Shown here: in pieces, positions 5,984 through 34,796 of the stretch
How positions within the stretch are numbered: position 1 is the stretch's first letter
Layout of the letters: each line of letters begins with the position of its first letter
UHGV virus genome: UHGV-1374678
Source of the DNA: a virus
Length of the DNA stretch: 64,000 nt
Strand: one strand, 5' to 3'
Translations under genes and position numbers: made by a program
Notes under the pieces: model-generated
Database searches by the model: none
Told to the model about the DNA's origin: nothing
What the model saw: the letters and a program-made list of their open reading frames with translations, nothing else

Positions 5984-6445
5984 ATGATTATATTACTTAT
6001 TATAATTTCAATCATAGGATTTATTATAGCTTATGTAATTGATGAAGATTTTGCTGGTTTTTTCTCAGTATGTTTCTGTGTATTACTTGTCATTGGTATG
6101 TTTTTAGGGATTTCTGTAAGTAATGGAAAAACCATAGACGAAAAAATTGTAATGTACCAAGAAGAGAATAACAAAATAGAGAAACAAATCGACACATTGG
6201 TTTCTAATTATATGAACTATGAATCTGATACATATGAAAAAATAAAATCAGAAAGTTCTATTACATTAGTTTCTATGTATCCAGAACTGAAATCAGATAA
6301 ATTAGTAGAAGAACAAATTTCCGTATATGAAGAAAACAATAAAAAGATCAGAGAATTCAAGGAAGATAAGATCAACCTGAAAGTTAAGAAGTGGTGGTTG
6401 TATTTTGGAGGTCGAATGAAATCGAACTTTCATAATGGAGAATAA
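5984..6445 (+). CDS. membrane-anchored coiled-coil protein
   Basis: N-terminal TM segments followed by a coiled-coil region. GGAGAATAAAATAAATG junction motif. Confidence 0.45.
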   Translation: MIILLIIISIIGFIIAYVIDEDFAGFFSVCFCVLLVIGMFLGISVSNGKTIDEKIVMYQEENNKIEKQIDTLVSNYMNYESDTYEKIKSESSITLVSMYPELKSDKLVEEQISVYEENNKKIREFKEDKINLKVKKWWLYFGGRMKSNFHNGE

Positions 6446-12802: not shown

Positions 12803-12871
12803 TTGGAGGAATAACGATGGAGATCAAAGAGACAATTAGTCTTCTTAAGGGCATTCAAAAAAGAGCTGCAA

Positions 12872-14210
12872 GGAATCCCATTAGCTTTAGCTGATAGATA
12901 AAGAGCTGTACAAAACAGCGAATATACAAATGAAAGTGAGGTGATAAGTAAATGTTAAAAGCTTACAAATATAGATTACATCCTAATAAACAACAGGAAA
13001 TTCAAATACAAAAAACTTTCGGATGTTGTAGGTTTGTTTACAATTATATGCTTAATTATAAACAGGAGTTGTATGAAACGAAGAAAGAATTTATGAGTAA
13101 GTTTGATTGTAATAATTATGTGAATCGTGTTCTTAAGAAAGAATATGAATGGTTAAAAAATGTAGACAAATTCGCTCTTACAAATGCAATTTATAATATG
13201 GATTCAGCTTATCAGAAATTTTTCAAAGAACATACTGGTTATCCAAGATTTAAAAGTAAAAAAGATAATAAAAAGTCTTATAAAACAAATAACAATGTAA
13301 ATAAGGGAATAGCAACTATTCGTATTGAAAAGAATAGATTAAGACTTCCTAAAATTGGAATGGTAAGAATTGTTTATTCAAGAGAAATAACAGAAAGGAT
13401 AAAATCTGCAACTATTTCACAAGATCCATCTGGAAAATATTTTGCATCAATATTATTTGAAGCAGAATACGAATATTTACCAAAGAGCAATAATTCAGTC
13501 GGTGTTGATTTAGGAATTAAGGATTTACTTATCACTTCGGATGGTGAGAAAATTAAAAACATTCTTACTACAAAGAAATATGAAAATAAATTAACAAAAG
13601 AGCAAAGAAAACTTGCTAAGAAACAAAGAGGTAGTGTCAACTATGGGAAACAGAGAATAAAAGTAGCTAAAATATATGAAAAAATTCGTAATATCAGACT
13701 ATATAATTTACATCAAATTTCTCACAAACTTATAATCGAAAACCAAGTGATAGTGAGTGAGAATTTAAATATAGAAAGTATGCGACAGAATCATAATCTT
13801 GCAAAATCTGTATCTGGTTGTAGTTGGTACGAATTAACTAGACAGTTATTTTATAAGGCTGAATGGTATGGAAGAGAATATATAAAAATAGATAGATTTT
13901 TTGCAAGTAGTCAGTTATGTAATTGTTGTGGTTATCAAAACAAAGAGGTTAAAGATTTATCTGTTAGAGAATGGATATGTCCGGAATGTGGAACTGTTCA
14001 TGATAGAGATGTAAACGCTGCGATTAATATTCTTAATGAAGGATTGAGATTGCTAGAAGTAGCTTAAATATAAAACATACGGCAATATCTGTCGGAATTT
14101 ACGCCTGTGGAGATAGTAGGTTACGAGGTTTATGAAGCAGGAAGGTTTATAAAAACCAGATAAAAACAATATTTCAAGTGGAGAATAAATAATATGTAGC
14201 ATATATAAAG
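12872..14210 (+). mobile_element. IS200/IS605-family (IS1341-like) insertion element, tnpB only, with an ωRNA expected at the 3' end
   Basis: Left-end block AATCCCATTAGCTTTAGCTGAT ... GAATATACAAATGAAAGTGAGGTGAT lies immediately upstream of tnpB. It is conserved with the second copy at 19701. No tnpA is present. The right boundary is approximate. Confidence 0.6.
12952..14067 (+). CDS. tnpB: TnpB (IS605 OrfB family, RuvC-like, RNA-guided nuclease family)
   Basis: N-terminal [15 protein letters not shown] is the OrfB hallmark. C-terminal zinc finger CNCCG...CPECG. RuvC-III-like [11 protein letters not shown]. Confidence 0.85.
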
Positions 14211-14222
14211 GGAGGTAGTTTT

Positions 14223-15080
14223 ATGGATAGAAGTGATCTCGCAGAAAGAATGAAAGGCTATGAAAAAAGGAATAGATATTATCTTCAGCGAAGGATGCCA
14301 GTAATTTTGAGGCTAGACATGAGAGCTGGACATAGCTTCACAAAAGGATTTGAAAGACCGTTTGATGAAGTTTTTATTAAAGCAATACAAGAAACGGCAA
14401 AATATTTATGCGAAAATGTTCAAAATTGTAAGTTATCTTATCAACAAAGTGACGAAATTACATTATTACTTGTTGATTATGAAAAAATAAATACAGATTG
14501 TTTCTTTGAATATAGAGTAGATAAACTTTGTAGTATTGCAGCAAGTATGGCTACGATGAAATTTAATCAAGTTTTTAAAGAATTATCTTATAGAGAGTCA
14601 GAAAATTTGGAAATTATTTGTAGAAAAAATCCATATTTAGAAAACAGAGATTGTTTAACTAAAATTCCTAATGTACATACCAATTCAGCAGATAAAGGTG
14701 CAATGTTCGATTGCAGATGTTTCAATATTCCAAAGGAAGAAGTAACTAATAGCATTTATTGGCGACAACTTGACGCTACACGAAACTCTATTCAGATGGT
14801 AGGACAAGCTAATTTTTCGCACAAAGAATTGCAGAACAAGTCTTGCAACGATATTCAGGATATGCTTATGACTCAGAAAGGTATTAATTGGAATGATTTG
14901 CCGCTATATCAAAAACGTGGATCTTGTTGTATTAGAAATCATATGATTTCACTACCATATGGCGATTACCTGCTAGATGAAACCGCAGGTGAAAACGAAT
15001 GGATTATTGATAAAGATATTCCAATCTTCAAAGGTGAAGGTAGAAAATATATTGATAATCTTGTTTTCGTAGGAGAATAA
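14223..15080 (+). CDS. Thg1-like protein (tRNA-His guanylyltransferase family 3'-5' nucleotidyltransferase)
   Basis: [24 protein letters not shown] aligns with Thg1 [36 protein letters not shown] aligns with AYGQSDEYSFVF. The catalytic Asp residues (LD.., SDE) are conserved. Confidence 0.75.
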   Translation: [285 protein letters not shown]

Positions 15081-19143: not shown

Positions 19144-19687
19144 TTTATATGTCTACTTAATTCGTTCAAGAAACAAAGACAACAAGGATGTTCCTAATTT
19201 CAAAGAACGAGCAAAGACTATCTTAGAATACAAAGAAAATGAAGAAAAAGTATTTGATGAATTTTATAAATTTGCAGCAGATGGAGTTCCTGGCGAACAG
19301 ACAAGATTGTATCGGTCTGTAAATTCTAGGAATGAAGAAAAGATAAGAGAAGAACTTATTATTAGATTGCTTAGAAATAAACCAAGTATGACAAAGCTGA
19401 ATCGTATATTGGCTTCAGTTACGCAGCAGGTGGAAAATCGTGATGAGGGTAAATGGTTATTTGATTTTGATGTGGATGATGAGATTATCGCAGATGATTT
19501 TATTGATGACATTTTTATCCAAACAGATATGGATTATCCAATAGAAAAAATTAAACGTTATAAAACTCCGCATGGTTATGCAATTGTAGTTCCACATGGA
19601 TTTGACACTAGAAAACTCATGGAGAAGTGGAAAGATTACGATATCACATTAAAGAAAGATGGATTGTTATTTTTGGATATGATTTAA
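19127..19687 (+). CDS. hypothetical protein
   Basis: ORF track. Confidence 0.45.
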   Translation: MKIMSDLYVYLIRSRNKDNKDVPNFKERAKTILEYKENEEKVFDEFYKFAADGVPGEQTRLYRSVNSRNEEKIREELIIRLLRNKPSMTKLNRILASVTQQVENRDEGKWLFDFDVDDEIIADDFIDDIFIQTDMDYPIEKIKRYKTPHGYAIVVPHGFDTRKLMEKWKDYDITLKKDGLLFLDMI

Positions 19688-19700
19688 AGGGTTTTGTCAG

Positions 19701-20995
19701 AAATTCCATTAACTTTAGCTGATGGGATGAATGACAGAGAATAACTGTATATGAGTAATAATTAGAAATCTAAAAAACAGAGAATATACAAATGAAAGGA
19801 AGTGATTGTAGATGTTAGTAGCATATAAATATAGATTATATCCAAACAAAGAACAGCAAGCATACTTTGCGAAGTGTTTTGGATGTGTACGATTCATCTA
19901 CAATCGTATGCTTTCAGATAAGATTGATTATTATAAAGAAACAAAACAGAAATTAAACAATACACCAGCTCAATATAAGAAAGAATTTGAATGGTTAAAA
20001 GAGGTTGACTCTCTTGCATTGGCAAATGCACAGATGAATCTACAGGCAGCTTACAATAATTTTTTCAAAAGACCAGAAGTGGGCTTTCCTAAATTTAAAA
20101 GTAAGAAAAGTCATAAATTTTCTTATACAACTAATAATCAAGGTGGAAATATTTATGTATCTGATAGGTATATAAAACTTCCTAAAATTGGTTTGGTTAG
20201 AGTAAAGAAACATAGAGATTTTGATGGATTAATTAAGTCTGTTACTGTTTCTCAAAACCCTTCTGGTAAATATTATGTCTCTGTTTTGGTTAGCCAAGAA
20301 GACAAAGAAAAACTACCTATTAACAATAACGAAATAGGAATTGATCTTGGTATTAAAGAATTTGCAATTACTTCTGATGGAGAAATGATTGAGAATCCAA
20401 AATATCTTAGAAAGTCTGAAAAGAAATTAAGAAAATTACAAAAGAATTTATCTCGTTGCAAAAAAGGAAGTAAAAACAGAGAAAAATGTAGAATTGAAGT
20501 TGCAAAACAACATGAAAAGATTACAAATCAAAGAAAAGATTTTTTACATAAATTAGCTACGAGAATTATTCGTGAAAATCAAACAATAGTTCTTGAAGAT
20601 TTAAAAGTAAAAAATATGATGAGTAACCATAAATTAGCAAAATCAATTGCAGATGTATCTTGGAGTGAATTTGTAAGGCAATTGGAATATAAAGCTGATT
20701 GGTATGGACGAGAAATTATAAAAATTGATACTTGGTATCCATCTAGCCAGATATGTTCTAATTGTGGTCACAGAGATGGAAAGAAAGCATTGTCTATAAG
20801 AGAATGGACATGTCCTAATTGCGGAACGCATCATGAAAGAGATATTAATGCAGCAATAAATATTCTCAATGAAGGTTTGAGAATGAGAACGGCAGGAACT
20901 GTCGAGATAGCCTAAGTAAACTTATCTCATTAGAGATATTGATTAGGAAGCCCAACGAGCTTTAGCTCGTGGGTAGTTCACAGATAATATTCCAA
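19701..20995 (+). mobile_element. second IS200/IS605-family (IS1341-like) tnpB-only element
   Basis: Left end AAATTCCATTAACTTTAGCTGAT ... GAATATACAAATGAAAGGAAGTGAT is homologous to the copy at 12872. The downstream region contains GAGCTTTAGCTCGTGGG, which echoes the left-end CTTTAGCT motif. The right boundary is approximate. Confidence 0.6.
19812..20915 (+). CDS. tnpB: TnpB (IS605 OrfB family)
   Basis: [17 protein letters not shown]-terminus. CSNCGH...CPNCGT zinc finger. [12 protein letters not shown] RuvC-III motif. About 45-50% identical to the first copy by eye. Confidence 0.85.
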
Positions 20996-22404: not shown

Positions 22405-23334
22405 TTGAGCAATACAAATGAAAGAAAAACTTCTACAGATGGACTTAGAGTGTTAAGTCTCTGTGGTGGTGTAGAAACTGGATTATACGCATTACAGCAA
22501 TTGGATATTCCGGTGAAAGAGTATCATACATATGAGATTCTGCCTGAAGCTATTGCAGTTTCTCAGTACCATTTTCCGTTTGTGATACATCATGGTGATT
22601 TATATGAAGCGGATTTTAATCAATTCAAAGGATTTGACTTGTTATTAGCAGGAACTTGTTGCCAAAGTTTGAGTAAAGTCAGAATAGAAAATAAACAAGT
22701 CAACAATGGTTTAGATGGCAAATCAGGTATTTTCTTTAAAGCCATCGAATGTCTTAAGGTAATTCAGCCAAAATATTTCATGTTTGAAAATGTAATACCG
22801 AGTAGAGAAGAGGATCTAAATACAATGACAGAATGCATTGGTGTTGACCCCTTGCTTATTGACTCTGCAATTTTTAGCGCACAGTCGAGAGAAAGATATT
22901 ATTGGACAAACATTCCATTGGGTGAATTACCGGAAGAATCTCCATTAGTTTTAAAAGACGTGATGGAGAATAATGTAAATGAGAAATATTTCTATAAAAA
23001 AGATTTTGAAATCATCGACATGAATAAACGTGTTTGTGCAGAGTTAAAGGTTAATACGATGGAGATGGGTAGACGTATCTATAATCCTGAGTTTAAGTGT
23101 TGTACATTAACGTGTGTTGGTGGTGGATACAACGAAAAGAAAGTTATGGATCATGACAGACCACGAAAATTAACACCTGTTGAATATGAAAGATTACAGG
23201 GACTACCGGATAGATATACGGATGTATTAATAAATGGAAGAAAAATAAGTGATACGAAACGATATTCTATGATGGGTAATGGTTGGAATGAACCGACAGT
23301 AGAGTGGATATTAAGTGGATTGAAAAAAGTGTAA
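22405..23334 (+). CDS. DNA (cytosine-5)-methyltransferase, small orphan type
   Basis: Motif I LSLCGGVETG. Motif IV GTCCQSLS, an unusual CCQ in place of PCQ. ENV (FMFENV). QSRERYYW (motif VIII). RKLTPVEYERLQGLPD (IX). MMGNGWNEPTV (X). The start codon is uncertain (TTG at 22405). Confidence 0.8.
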   Translation: MSNTNERKTSTDGLRVLSLCGGVETGLYALQQLDIPVKEYHTYEILPEAIAVSQYHFPFVIHHGDLYEADFNQFKGFDLLLAGTCCQSLSKVRIENKQVNNGLDGKSGIFFKAIECLKVIQPKYFMFENVIPSREEDLNTMTECIGVDPLLIDSAIFSAQSRERYYWTNIPLGELPEESPLVLKDVMENNVNEKYFYKKDFEIIDMNKRVCAELKVNTMEMGRRIYNPEFKCCTLTCVGGGYNEKKVMDHDRPRKLTPVEYERLQGLPDRYTDVLINGRKISDTKRYSMMGNGWNEPTVEWILSGLKKV

Positions 23335-23465: not shown

Positions 23466-24443
23466 ATGATAAAAAGCATAAATTCATTCGGACTAACGGT
23501 ATTAAGTTTATGTGATGGAATGTCGTGTGGACAGATAGCGTTAGAACAGGCAGGTTTTAAAGTCGATAAATACTTTGCGTCAGAGATTAAAGACATTGCA
23601 ATTAAAGTAACCAAAGAAAATTATCCAAACACAATTCATATTGGTGATGTAAATAAAATTTTCTATAAAGATGGAATATTACATACTGAAGTCGGAGATT
23701 TTGAAACAAATATTGATGTAGTTATGTTTGGAAGTCCTTGTCAAAGTTTCTCGAGAGCAATGATTAAAGAAAGAAAAATTGGTTTGGATGATCCAAAGCG
23801 TTCAGGTTTGTTTTATGAATGTAATAGAGTACTAAGAGAAGTAAATCCAAAATATTTTCTCATGGAAAATGTTGTTATGAAAAAAGAAGATGAAGAAGTT
23901 ATCAGTAAAATGATTGGAGTAAAGCCTATTAGAATCAATTCTTCTCTTGTTGTTGGTCAACTTAGAGATAGGTATTATTGGACTAATATTCCAGAAGTTA
24001 CAGTACCGGAGGATAAGAAAATAACATTGCAAAGTATTTTAAATGATGGTTATACGCCTGACAAGAAAGCAAAATGTCTTCGTAGAAATGATTCACATGG
24101 ATTTTACAACGGATGCGGTTGGACTCCGATCAAAAGATTCCATAGGTTTTACTATAAATCTTTTGGAACAATGGTATTTCCATCAAAGGAATATTTTGAA
24201 AATTGTTTGGAAGTAACTAAGAAAATATTAAATGGGAGAAAGTCGTCAGCAAAAATGTATGATGATTACAATGGTCATGATTTTGATGATGCAAGATATT
24301 TATGGAAAGAAGAAAGAGCAAGGTTGCAGGGAGTTCCTGAAGAATATGTGAAATATATGTCTGAAAAAGACGCTGCTGACGTTCTTGGAGATGGTTGGAC
24401 AGTACCAGTAATTGCTCATATCTTTAGTTTTATGAAGTTTTAA
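23466..24443 (+). CDS. DNA (cytosine-5)-methyltransferase, small orphan type
   Basis: GSPCQSFS (motif IV), FLMENV, GQLRDRYYW, ERARLQGVPEEY and LGDGWTVPV motifs. Confidence 0.85.
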   Translation: MIKSINSFGLTVLSLCDGMSCGQIALEQAGFKVDKYFASEIKDIAIKVTKENYPNTIHIGDVNKIFYKDGILHTEVGDFETNIDVVMFGSPCQSFSRAMIKERKIGLDDPKRSGLFYECNRVLREVNPKYFLMENVVMKKEDEEVISKMIGVKPIRINSSLVVGQLRDRYYWTNIPEVTVPEDKKITLQSILNDGYTPDKKAKCLRRNDSHGFYNGCGWTPIKRFHRFYYKSFGTMVFPSKEYFENCLEVTKKILNGRKSSAKMYDDYNGHDFDDARYLWKEERARLQGVPEEYVKYMSEKDAADVLGDGWTVPVIAHIFSFMKF

Positions 24444-26421: not shown

Positions 26422-27729
26422 ATGTATTGTGCTTATGTTACAACATTAAAAGGATTAAGAAAACATAGTAATGCAGATAGATTACAGTGTGTTGAAGTTT
26501 TTGGACAAAATGTAATTGTTGATTTGAGCTATAAAGATGGACAAAAGGTAGTTTTCTTTCCATCTGACGGACAATTATCAGAAGAGTATGCAAAAGATAA
26601 TAATCTCGTAAGAATGAAAGATGAAAATGGTAATAATATTGGCGGATATATGGACGCTGAAAAAAGAAATGTTACTGCGATTAGACTCAGAGGTGAAAAA
26701 TCAGAGGGTTTAGTATTGCCTATAGAATCACTTTCTAAGTATGTGGATGTTACAAAATTAAAAGATGGAGATCAGATTACCGTCATTGGTGGTCATGAAA
26801 TCTGTAGAAAATATATTCCAAAAAGTAGTAGAAGAAGCAACAACTCAAGAAAAAGTAGTGATAAGAAGAAAAAAGATAACTCGATTTCTTATCCATTCTT
26901 CGAAGAACACAAAGATACTGCACAGCTTGCGTATAATATGTCTGCGTTTAAACCCGGTGATACTGTATATATTACCCGTAAGCTTCACGGCACGTCAGCT
27001 CGTACCATGAAGACAATTAAAGTAACAAAGAAGAATAATGTATTTAGAAGATTTTTACATATGAAACCTAAATACGAAAAAGAAGTTTCTGTAGTTACAG
27101 GAAGTAGACGAGTTGTATTAAAAGATATGAATAGTACAGATGGTTATTATTCAGATAATACATTCAGAAAGAAATATCACGATTTGTTAAAAGACAAACT
27201 TCCGGAAGGATTTGAAATTTTCTATGAGATTGTTGGTTATGTAAACGAGACAACACCAATCATGGGAACTGTGTCAAACAGCAAAGTAAAAGATAAAGAA
27301 TTCAAGAAGAAATTTGGAGATACAACTGTATTTTCTTATGGCTGCAAACCAGGTGAAAACGAAATGTATGTGTATAGAATGACTGCAACAACAGCAGATG
27401 GTACAGTTGTGGAAATTCCTTGGGAGAATATAAAAGTATGGTGTGACAAACTTGGTGTAAAACATGTACCAGAATTGGAAAAATTTATCTATACAACGCC
27501 TGAAGACTTAAAAGAAAGAGTAAATAAGTATCTTGATGGTATGCCAGTTGATGAGATTGGTAAAACACATATTGCAGAAGGTGTAGTTGTTCGTATTGAC
27601 AATAGAGATTCATTTACTGCATATAAAGATAAAGTGTTCGAATTCAAGGTATGTGAAGGAATTATTAAAGACAATTCAGACGCACCAGACATGGAAGAAG
27701 CAGAAGAATTGCTTAAGGAGATTGTATAA
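26422..27729 (+). CDS. RNA ligase (Rnl2-like nucleotidyltransferase) with N-terminal tRNA-binding OB-fold (Myf/Trbp111-type) domain
   Basis: N-terminus KHSNADRLQCVEVFG...GQKVVFFPSDGQL...RGEKSEGLV matches the tRNA-binding consensus (HPDADKLYVCKVDVG...GQKVVVALPGAVL...RGVESEGML). Ligase motif I TRKLHGTSA (KxHGxN). Motif III-like FEIFYEIVGY. Motif IV AEGVVVR. Confidence 0.75.
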   Translation: MYCAYVTTLKGLRKHSNADRLQCVEVFGQNVIVDLSYKDGQKVVFFPSDGQLSEEYAKDNNLVRMKDENGNNIGGYMDAEKRNVTAIRLRGEKSEGLVLPIESLSKYVDVTKLKDGDQITVIGGHEICRKYIPKSSRRSNNSRKSSDKKKKDNSISYPFFEEHKDTAQLAYNMSAFKPGDTVYITRKLHGTSARTMKTIKVTKKNNVFRRFLHMKPKYEKEVSVVTGSRRVVLKDMNSTDGYYSDNTFRKKYHDLLKDKLPEGFEIFYEIVGYVNETTPIMGTVSNSKVKDKEFKKKFGDTTVFSYGCKPGENEMYVYRMTATTADGTVVEIPWENIKVWCDKLGVKHVPELEKFIYTTPEDLKERVNKYLDGMPVDEIGKTHIAEGVVVRIDNRDSFTAYKDKVFEFKVCEGIIKDNSDAPDMEEAEELLKEIV

Positions 27730-32212: not shown

Positions 32213-32342
32213 CAGAGAATAAACAAGTAAGAGATGTCCACGATGCAAATGACATTAAACTTATTGCACAGTGCTAACAAAAGAATAGAGATGATAGTTG
32301 GTAGTGTCTACCATCTCCACTGAATTTCTTTTCCAACAACCG

Positions 32343-32441
32343 TTATTGCATTCGATTATCTAGTAACCGAAGACGAGATACCAGCTCGTACTTCTTAATA
32401 CGGTTAAGCACTTTAAGCGGTTTCAGTTCCGCTTGGTACAT
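32343..32441 (-). CDS. possible 32-aa peptide on the minus strand
   Basis: Minus-strand ATG preceded by TAAGGAC, coding MYQAELKPLKVLNRIKKYELVSRLRLLDNRMQ. Only a weak call. Confidence 0.15.
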   Translation of the reverse strand: MYQAELKPLKVLNRIKKYELVSRLRLLDNRMQ

Positions 32442-32622
32442 GTCCTTAGCTGCTTTGCTTCCATTGGGCTGGACGAATTCAAAACTGCTTTCAAAGCAAA
32501 TTCCTCCTTAGTCCATATAGGGACAGGAAGTATTATAACAGAACAAAGGACATGTATCAATAACTGATAGAGAATATATAAGTATAAAGTTTAAAGATTC
32601 AAAGATTAAAGGAGAAAAGATT

Positions 32623-33267: not shown

Positions 33268-33908
33268 AGAATATATAAATAGGAAATTATTTCACTGTTT
33301 GCTGAAAACTTAAAACTACAATCATTCAGACTTTTGCAAGTATAGCCTGAATAAAAACAATAAAGAAACTTGCAATATCCTAAAACATAAAAGGTAAGTA
33401 GAATATTAAGTAGAATATACAGATGAATGTTTAATGCACATTGTTAAACAGATAGCTGTAAAGAGTAAAGTTCAAATGTCAAGTAGTAAAACTCAAAATT
33501 CAAAGATTATGTTTTGTGTAAAGTTTAAATAGTAAATAGTAAAGATATAAAGTTTTATGAAATCTTCGATAACAGTTTTCAGTATGATTGTACTTGACTA
33601 TAAGTTGTCTGCGAAGCTGGTAAATGGTGAATTAATTATAAATGTCAACCTGCATAATAATATGCATAGTTATCGTGTGGGTTGACAAATAAGCACCCAA
33701 GGTGATGCGGTACGTTGCACCTGGCTTATATCCAGCGATTCTCCGTTCGACTCGGAGTGGGTGTACTGTATCTGAATATTCACAGAATGTGTTATTAATT
33801 TCCTTTCTTTCTATGAACATTCTAGTTCAGATACAATGTTTTTCATAACTTCCTTTTTGTTGGGTTGGCAACTTACCCTAGAGACAAAAAAGTTGCAAAT
33901 AAAAATAT

Positions 33909-34484: not shown

Positions 34485-34567
34485 GCTGGCATGGCGGAAT
34501 GGTAGACGCAATGGACTTAAAATCCATCGGTGGAAACACCATACGAGTTCAAGTCTCGTTGCCAGTA
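34485..34567 (+). tRNA. tRNA-Leu (anticodon UAA)
   Basis: Hand fold: acceptor GCTGGCA/TGCCAGT, D-arm GCG..CGC, anticodon stem ATGGA/TCCAT with loop CTTAAAA (anticodon TAA), long variable arm GGTG-GAAA-CACC, T-arm ACGAG-TTCAAGT-CTCGT, discriminator A. No CCA encoded. Confidence 0.85.
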
Positions 34568-34726: not shown

Positions 34727-34796
34727 TGGCTGTTAGCTCAGTTGGAAGAGCATCTATTGCAAGAGAGGGTCACAGGTTCGATTCCTGCACAGTCAA
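34727..34796 (+). tRNA. degenerate tRNA-like gene (pseudo-tRNA?)
   Basis: Canonical 5' half TGGCTGT-TA-GCTC-AGTTGGAA-GAGC, T-loop GGTTCGATTCC and a pairing acceptor 3' strand ACAGTCA. The anticodon-arm region is 2-3 nt too short to fold canonically and the T-stem has an A:C mismatch. Overlapping ORFs 34603..34884 are probably spurious. Confidence 0.4.

Follow-up and report, generated by a model that had tools for sequence, protein, structure and literature searches.

A candidate homing-type TnpB/ωRNA cassette without a transposase in a gut-phage genome

Introduction

A tnpB gene that stands in a phage genome with no transposase beside it raises the question of whether it is a passenger or an RNA-guided nuclease that acts between phages. 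This question was addressed for the virus genome UHGV-1374678, of which a stretch of 64,000 nucleotides (the window) was analysed. The window carries two tnpB genes, and the first of them, copy 1, is the subject of this work. An earlier note on the same DNA had described copy 1 as an IS1341-like, tnpB-only element whose guide RNA (ωRNA) is encoded across the 3′ end of tnpB and the right end (RE) of the element. We found that copy 1 is intact in gene and catalytic residues, and it is probable, on balance, that it is a transposase-independent TnpB/ωRNA cassette of homing type. TnpB genes are common in phages (427 phage records gave a TnpB match by tblastn), and TnpB-only elements are a recognised group; the role of phage-borne tnpB is treated as open (bioRxiv 10.64898/2026.02.14.705889; PMC11437467). 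What sets this locus apart is a set of coherent departures from the family, together with natural pairs of occupied and empty alleles.

Results

Copy 1 encodes a complete TnpB of the IS200/IS605 family

As had been proposed, the product of copy 1 is a complete TnpB of 371 amino acids (aa) with a RuvC domain and a zinc finger; open reading frame (ORF) calling, family models and residue alignment agreed on this (Table 1). HTH_OrfB_IS605, OrfB_IS605 and Cas12f1-like_TNB were each found over their cut-offs by Pfam search. The NCBIfam model NF038281 (IS200_TnpB) gave 488 bits at a cut-off of 425, whereas the IS607_TnpB model fell short, with 178 bits at a cut-off of 350. In a search against solved structures, residues 3-365 aligned with residues 5-373 of ISDra2 TnpB (E 4e-82). 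The catalytic D/E/D residues of RuvC, whose possible loss had been raised as a doubt, were present in this alignment as D186/E270/D353 (ISDra2 D191/E278/D361), and the CxxC..CxxC zinc finger was kept as C323/C326/C343/C346. Both sets of residues were conserved across eight aligned relatives.

No Y1 transposase was detected in the 64-kb window by a three-motif scan of all six frames, in agreement with the reported absence of TnpA; in more than 40 related loci the same scan did detect TnpA, immediately 5′ of tnpB. Between the left end (LE) and tnpB no ORF was present, which is a feature of the TnpB-only IS1341 type. Copy 1 is securely identified as a TnpB/ωRNA element of the IS200/IS605 family, IS1341-type, and both the family models and the surrounding phage replication genes confirmed that such an element lies within the phage.

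Table 1. Features of the copy 1 locus, of a second unoccupied site and of copy 2. Positions are those of the window; ^ marks the junction between flank and element.
Feature	Position	Strand	Basis or remark
Phage-gene stump, 25 codons (MEIKETISLLKGIQ plus read-through into element)	12817-12894	+	counterpart full length in L106
TTCAA pentamer adjoining left end	12854-12858	+	position of family target-adjacent motif, consensus TTGAA; left-end alignment
Left end (LE)	12859-12951	+	decayed subterminal hairpin 12877-12898 (CCCATTAGC-TTTA-GCTGATAGA), ribosome-binding site GAGGTG; alignments
tnpB copy 1, 371 aa	12952-14067	+	ORF calling, family models, residue alignment
ωRNA scaffold, predicted (3′ 117 nt modelled; 5′ limit unmapped)	14048-14164	+	covariance model, covariation
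ωRNA helix 1	14080-14085/14089-14094	+	comparative model
ωRNA helix 2	14104-14108/14137-14141	+	comparative model
ωRNA helix 3	14112-14114/14128-14130	+	comparative model
ωRNA short terminal hairpin	14144-14148/14153-14157	+	comparative model
ωRNA 3′ terminus AGAUAAA	14158-14164	+	comparative model
Presumed guide AACAATATTTCAAGTGGAGA	14165-14184	+	model geometry; TnpB-less alleles start homology here
Unoccupied site GGTCGAATGAA^ATCGAACTTTCATAATGGAG	6417-6445	+	holds 90%-identical variant element in L001, L368
Copy 2, canonical element	19688-20981	+	TTTAA at 19683-19687, then LE, tnpB, ωRNA
Copy 2 tnpB, 367 aa	19812-20915	+	Pfam, NCBIfam
Copy 2 ωRNA with family hairpin CCCAACGAGCTTTAGCTCGTGGG, terminus TAGTTCAC	20860-20981	+	covariance model R1

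A covarying ωRNA structure spans the 3′ end of tnpB and the right end

For 36 non-identical elements, the segment that starts 20 nt before the end of tnpB and runs to the right end was aligned, and the consensus was obtained with RNAalifold plus a hand-specified four-helix structure. The helices were paired in 97.2% of cells, compared with 84% in column shuffles and 31-52% when the partners were slid. Cells changed on both sides numbered 86 (27 expected), and compensatory changes were seen in the four helices. G-U pairs are frequent, which restricts the structure to the transcript of the + strand. A covariance model, R1, was built without copy 1 or its two closest relatives. It matched copy 1 with 94.8 bits (E 4e-21), copy 2 with 46.5 bits (E 4e-9) and 78 of 80 bacterial relatives, and gave no other match in the window. 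The scaffold was thereby placed across the 3′ end of tnpB and the right end, as predicted, and ends within the expected interval 14000-14210. Of what had been anticipated for the right end itself, a structured RNA with covariation was found, whereas the conserved family hairpin was not and a degenerate variant stands in its place.

At gathering thresholds Rfam gave no match to copy 1, copy 2 or any of 18 related loci, and no Rfam family covers the copy 1 ωRNA. Membership in RAGATH-18, the core of the IS607 TnpB guide RNA or reRNA (ISFba1; PMC11061315), was considered for 14104-14143 and rejected: in a relaxed Rfam search the score was 22 bits against a gathering threshold of 44.9, and no gathering-level RAGATH-18 match was found among the relatives of copy 1. 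The closing helix with its flanking bases (CCUGUGGAG...GAUGAAGCAGGAA) recurs in copy 1 and is all that is shared, enclosing 17 nt rather than 48 nt. The IS607 system also differs in its motif (AGGAG) and in its transposase, a serine recombinase.

A promoter-like TTTACA-18-TATAAT site (11/12 matches) was seen inside tnpB at 13707-13736 (+), ~330 nt before the stop codon. It could drive a separate ωRNA transcript; promoter-like sites in this region are no more numerous than in shuffles.

Empty alleles carry the presumed guide next to a motif-like pentamer

The relatives of the copy 1 locus are IMG/VR viral contigs of 100-200 kb; the loci compared are denoted by L numbers. Megablast with the copy 1 region as query found no match among 50,697 phage records, so that no annotated close relative was available. 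A guide of ~16-20 nt was assumed, the length being inferred from ISDra2 (16 nt; PMC10097598). The 20-mer was unique within the window at up to 3 mismatches. Four TnpB-less contigs read ATGAA^AACAATATTTCAA(G/A)TG(G/A)(A/G)GAATAAAT. The match to the guide was 20/20 in L106, and two mismatches, at positions 14 and 17, were present in L098. At the position of ATGAA in these empty alleles the window reads ATAAA, the element's own end. The window (14160-14195) and the contigs L106, L098, L237 and L257 share a linker of ~30 nt, ATGAAAACAATATTTCAA(G/A)TG(G/A)(A/G)GAATAAAT. Two kinds of module occur on its left and three kinds on its right, suggesting that it is a recurrent recombination junction.

A second site was found at 6417-6445. 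Where the element of L001 and L368 is absent, its site reads ATGAA followed directly by the guide of that element; this holds for six viral contigs and for the window (ATGAA^ATCGAACTTTCATAATGGAG). The site is located within the C-terminal tail of ORF 5984-6445, and this tail (..NNISNEE, then stop) resembles the tail at the site of copy 1 itself (..KSNFHNGE, then stop). The L001 phage is empty at the copy 1 site (L098). Occupied and empty sites are reciprocal, the window phage being occupied upstream of the Thg1-like gene and empty at 6417-6445 and the L001 phage the reverse.

The element ends at the scaffold and replaces 651 bp

The comparison with L106, the left ends of the family and the covariance model placed the limits of copy 1 at ~12859-14164. 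The limits given before, 12872-14210, were replaced accordingly: 14165-14222 is native intergenic phage DNA that is also found in TnpB-less relatives. L106 was 97% identical to the window up to 12859 and resumed at ~14160, with 651 bp, comprising most of two small ORFs, in place of the element. The phage gene that is truncated to a stump in the window is full length (~138-150 aa) in L106. The window has TTCAA at LE, and the empty alleles have ATGAA at the RE junction.

The right boundary is uncertain by ~5 nt. An alternative boundary, in which the element ends ...CCAG and ATAAAA is a mutated target ATGAAA, was set aside because all three variant elements (see below) share ATAAAA in different contexts, because the model leaves 7 nt between the hairpin and the end, the same number as in canonical members, and because it would leave no common motif 5′ of the target. 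The likeness of the L001 right flank to the window (blastn to 14207) was traced to a generic GGAGAATAAA..ATG, resembling a ribosome-binding site, that recurs across the window and is not part of the element. L187 and L181 were rejected as empty sites, being larger mosaic or deletion variants.

Copy 2 and its relatives define the canonical family

The second, diverged tnpB copy that had been reported downstream was confirmed. Its protein is 51% identical to that of copy 1, and the left-end block AAT(C/T)CCATTA(G/A)CTTTAGCTGAT(A/G)G aligns at 12874-12897 in copy 1 and at ~19702-19725 in copy 2. Judging from the 51% identity and saturated dS (synonymous divergence), the two copies are independent acquisitions, in agreement with repeated invasion, one of two possibilities that had been suggested. 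Copy 2 was at the same site in 10 of the 10 contigs listed for the upstream 183-aa protein.

Bacterial relatives, mostly of Lachnospiraceae and other gut Clostridia, were 59-65% identical and often had a Y1 TnpA upstream, indicating a genuine IS200/IS605 family. Their distribution suggests gut Clostridia as the likely hosts. Canonical left ends have the form GGCTCGCA-ATCCCATTAGCTTTAGCTGATGGG-TAAAGAGCC. At canonical right ends, the conserved scaffold is followed by a hairpin with the same GCTTTAGC loop as in LE and by the terminus AGTTCAC, and the flanks diverge right after it; the GUUCAC of the RNA was invariant in 75/75 bacterial hits. Comparison with empty sites in related phages, which had been recommended for finding the target-adjacent motif (TAM), gave TTGAA for the family (pair L007/L101) and TTGAG for the pair L005/L045, with insertion directly 3′ of the motif and no duplication.

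The canonical IS605 elements of Lachnospiraceae and gut phages (TnpA plus TnpB; copy 2, L002-L070 and L278-L357) have protein identities of 59-71% and share with copy 1 ωRNA helices 1-3 and the left-end block. They carry ~9-bp LE and RE hairpins with the GCTTTAGC loop and the AGTTCAC end, and are inserted 3′ of TTGAA. In contrast, copy 1 and the elements of L001 and L085 have a 5-bp AT-rich RE hairpin and an AGATAAA-type end, and in copy 1 the LE hairpin has decayed as well.

Copy 1 belongs to a variant sub-lineage with changes in both RNA and protein

The variant right end is limited to copy 1, L001 (90% protein identity) and L085 (77%); when further cases were sought in IMG/VR and JGI metagenomes, the scans returned only the L001 and L085 contigs. 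The hairpin GGTTT-ATAA-AAACC replaces the ~9-bp family hairpin, and the terminus reads AG/CATAAA instead of AGTTCAC. In copy 1, two base pairs of the LE hairpin are gone and the hairpin is not predicted to fold any longer: as DNA, its LE gave -2.9 kcal/mol (z +0.45), compared with -9.2 kcal/mol (z -2.8) for the canonical LE, and its RE stem gave -3.4 compared with -8.7 kcal/mol. Resembling subterminal hairpins at both ends were absent from copy 1, while copy 2 has the family hairpin at RE.

In ISDra2, bases -6 to -2 of the ωRNA pair with an upstream GGNAU as a pseudoknot that is needed for activity, K263 reads a G:C pair of this pseudoknot, K76/F77 recognise TAM bases G(-3) and T(-4), and the loop F122-T123-N124 reads TAM positions -4 and -5 (PMC10097598). 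K76/F77 are retained in copy 1 as K73/F74. In an alignment of 153 relatives, the K263 equivalent was K or R except in copy 1, L001 and L085, which have Q. Canonical members carry an FTN-like loop, and only the three variants have NNV/NSV with a 2-aa insertion. The altered loop fits a motif ATGAA rather than TTGAA, as judged from the ISDra2 contacts. The ratio of nonsynonymous to synonymous divergence (dN/dS) was 0.15 for copy 1/L001, 0.15 for copy 1/L085 and 0.13 for L001/L085, with dS up to ~1, indicating that copy 1 tnpB is under purifying selection.

The third member, in L085, has a small divergent gene instead of LE and adjoins a repeated intergenic element. Such a gene of 60-65 aa replaces LE at L085:2462-2644 (-) and L010:2735-2932 (-), and also in L014, L041, L070 and L068. 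It was rejected as a transposase in L085 and L010; by eye it resembles a ribbon-helix-helix protein, with the consensus MA.GKDKTGVL.NM....KAKLEELA.KDGRS.TNLINKIL..Y. A near-consensus TTGACA-N18-TATAAT promoter faces tnpB in loci of the L085/L010 type, which may be regulator-plus-TnpB cassettes rather than transposons.

Copy 1 is widespread at one position

A protein identical to that of copy 1 was found in at least 63 assembly blocks (ENA, Logan metagenomes), on contigs of up to 232 kb, and in every case flanked by one and the same zinc-ribbon gene and linker. Ten contigs were picked via the neighbouring zinc-ribbon protein. From the zinc-ribbon gene through the ωRNA they were at least 99.6% identical, and the 97 nt that cover ωRNA and right end were identical in 10/10. 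The modules further left and right of this conserved block differed among the ten.

Other mobile elements were seen in related phages. L036:586-804 holds a HEARO RNA, the IscB-associated ωRNA (142 bits), which is absent from the window. IscB-like proteins of 417-424 aa with RRXRR and HNH domains, also absent from the window, are encoded a few genes upstream of the zinc-ribbon gene (L167:276-1550, L175:818-2092, L179:839-2092), and an IS66-family transposase is present in L165 and L173.

Discussion

How a homing-type cassette would work

The cassette runs in the same direction as the phage genes for replication and nucleotide metabolism around it, and transcription together with them is probable. 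TnpB would bind the scaffold encoded at the 3′ end of its own gene and just downstream; the transcript would run into the flank, of which ~16-20 nt (AACAATATTTCAAGTGGAGA) would serve as guide. The complex would cut DNA with a TTGAA-like motif directly 5′ of the guide sequence, and ATGAA plus guide at the unoccupied locus of sibling phages is the proposed target. The carrier should be immune, since in the window the end of the element, GATAAA, stands in place of the motif. When both phages infect one cell, the rival genome would be cut and then repaired with the carrier as template, by which the cassette would be copied and the rival allele excluded (homing). The empty alleles lend indirect support to the homing function suggested earlier. 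Flank-derived guides, TAM-dependent cleavage and repair from the carrier were reportedly described by Karvelis et al. 2021, Altae-Tran et al. 2021 and Meers et al. 2023. With no TnpA in the window, the LE hairpin decayed and the RE hairpin and terminus remodelled, copy 1 probably no longer transposes. Because it has lost features that a Y1 transposase needs, its action would be expected between co-infecting phages and not after excision by TnpA.

Several observations weigh against this interpretation. The single-sequence fold of 14048-14164 was not better than shuffles (z -0.98) and did not reproduce the consensus structure, so that the support for the ωRNA structure is entirely comparative. 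ATGAA differs by one base from the family motif TTGAA, and the LE pentamer TTCAA is without the G that K73 should read. The empty copies of the repeated intergenic element of L085 are not preceded by ATGAA. In copy 1 GAUAAA replaces GUUCAC, and the pseudoknot with GGAAU keeps one of three Watson-Crick pairs in the canonical register. Given that the ISDra2 segment is needed for activity, the copy 1 ωRNA could be impaired, unless the segment pairs in another register. An alternative register, UUA:UAA, is possible; covariation is uninformative on the pseudoknot because both partners are invariant. The co-changes in protein and RNA count as a single evolutionary event, because the three variants form one clade. 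Finally, the comparison with L106 is a replacement of 651 bp and no clean insertion, so that an extra deletion or recombination step is needed; two copies, or the microhomology ATT(C/TG)AAA, may have served as the sites of such recombination. Intermediates accounting for this exchange were not found in the IMG/VR and JGI metagenome scans for the variant right end.

A more far-reaching version of the homing interpretation is possible, and we put it forward tentatively: copy 1 may represent a phage-adapted TnpB sub-lineage that has abandoned transposition for an RNA-guided homing drive between co-infecting gut phages. Its guide would be aimed at the conserved ~30-nt linker that joins gene modules. 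Its TAM specificity would have shifted to ATGAA through the remodelled WED loop, and the guide-proximal pseudoknot would have been remade in step with the residue that contacts it (K to Q). Sibling phages hold reciprocal copies, so that each could convert the other.

Alternative explanations

The alternative that survives best, although we regard it as unlikely, is that copy 1 is an ordinary selfish passenger, mobilised in trans by a host IS605 Y1 TnpA; TnpB would then re-cut the excision joint and restore the copy, and nothing would be specific to phage competition. Elements of this family that do carry TnpA abound in the genomes of the likely hosts, Lachnospiraceae and other gut Clostridia, copy 2 has canonical ends, and the variant sub-lineage, present at no fewer than three loci, has moved somehow. 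However, the family LE hairpin, RE hairpin and terminus have all been lost from copy 1, and it occupies the same position in every contig that carries it. Moreover, its excision joint, GGGCATTCAA-AACAATATTTC, would read TTCAA plus guide, without the G of the TAM, and in L085 and five other relatives LE has been replaced outright by the divergent small gene.

It is improbable that copy 1 is a domesticated weapon or regulator of the phage, with a guide against a competing mobile element or a host site, or with TldR-type binding in place of cutting. Such a role agrees with the long-standing purifying selection on the cassette, with its fixation in a phage lineage of wide occurrence, and with the position of the guide in a promoter- and ribosome-binding-site-proximal linker upstream of the Thg1-like gene. 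On the other hand, the RuvC triad is intact, unlike that of the nuclease-dead TldRs, and matches to the guide were found only at the homologous linker in sibling phages, in searches that did not cover host genomes.

It is highly improbable that copy 1 is a decaying relic, with a pseudoknot broken by the remodelled ωRNA terminus and an inactive ribonucleoprotein whose cassette is carried along by a successful phage. In favour of this, GAUAAA stands in place of GUUCAC at a segment that is near-invariant and structurally essential (PMC10097598), and the end hairpins have decayed. Against it, the ORF, catalytic residues and helices 1-3 are intact, dN/dS stays at 0.13-0.15 over dS ~1 between the variant members, and the change of the K263 equivalent to Q in just 3/153 relatives suggests adaptation rather than decay.

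Known systems and significance

The closest characterised system is ISDra2 TnpB-ωRNA of Deinococcus radiodurans (PDB 8EXA, 8H1J). Besides the end-to-end alignment, the RuvC triad, the zinc finger and the K76/F77 contacts, copy 1 shares with it an ωRNA drawn from the tnpB 3′ end and the right end and, presumably, a guide from the flank; the TAMs, TTGAA in the family and TTGAT in ISDra2, differ by one base. Copy 1 differs in being phage-borne, in having no TnpA and in its length (371 aa versus 408 aa, the C-terminal tail being absent), and also in the pseudoknot segment GAUAAA, the K263 to Q change, and the T123/N124 loop, which has become NNV with the 2-aa insertion.

A homing-type role for copy 1 would resemble that of the free-standing homing endonucleases SegF, SegB and Mob of T4-like phages, for which intronless homing and localized marker exclusion have been described (PMC13565253). 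The likeness proposed here is that of a nuclease gene between conserved phage genes that cuts the allele without it in a co-infecting relative, with short flanking tracts travelling along. SegF, SegB and Mob recognise their targets by protein, whereas copy 1 would use a guide RNA plus TAM.

Among gut phages that are widespread and closely related, the locus exists as matched occupied and empty alleles; on the empty allele a TAM-like pentamer is in place and the presumed guide has a 20/20 match. Because these natural alleles are both matched and reciprocal, RNA-guided homing or marker exclusion between phages is directly testable. The variant sub-lineage is also a natural experiment on two constraints that were thought fixed. 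For nuclease engineering, it provides a small ISDra2-like enzyme of 371 aa in which the guide-proximal RNA, the residue contacting it and the TAM loop have changed together.

Surroundings of the locus

The neighbouring genes encode a DnaB-like helicase, a primase, a RecJ-like exonuclease, a DNA polymerase, an NAD ligase, NrdD and an RNA ligase. Directly downstream of copy 1, at 14223-15080, lies a homologue of Thg1-like tRNA-His guanylyltransferase (Pfam Thg1, E 2e-27), and the RNA ligase (PHROG 968) is located 12 kb past it, at 26422-27729. Two tRNAs were found at Rfam gathering level at 34485-34567 (+) and 34727-34796 (+). The Thg1-like gene, the RNA ligase and the tRNA genes may together serve the repair or maintenance of tRNAs in the phage. 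The sibling contig L179 encodes a fusion of Thg1 with an RNA-ligase-like domain, and a KTI12/AAA_33 kinase comes next.

Within ~2.5 kb of the tRNAs, a RAGATH-27 RNA (33291-33374, +, 85.1 bits) and a FuFi-1 RNA (32285-32457, -, 66.7 bits) were also detected at gathering level. The adjacent ORFs 22405-23334 and 23466-24443 show motifs, read by eye, like those of cytosine-5 DNA methyltransferases (..GTCCQSLS.., ..GSPCQSFS.., ENV), and their counterpart in the sibling contig L190 has a Pfam DNA_methylase match.

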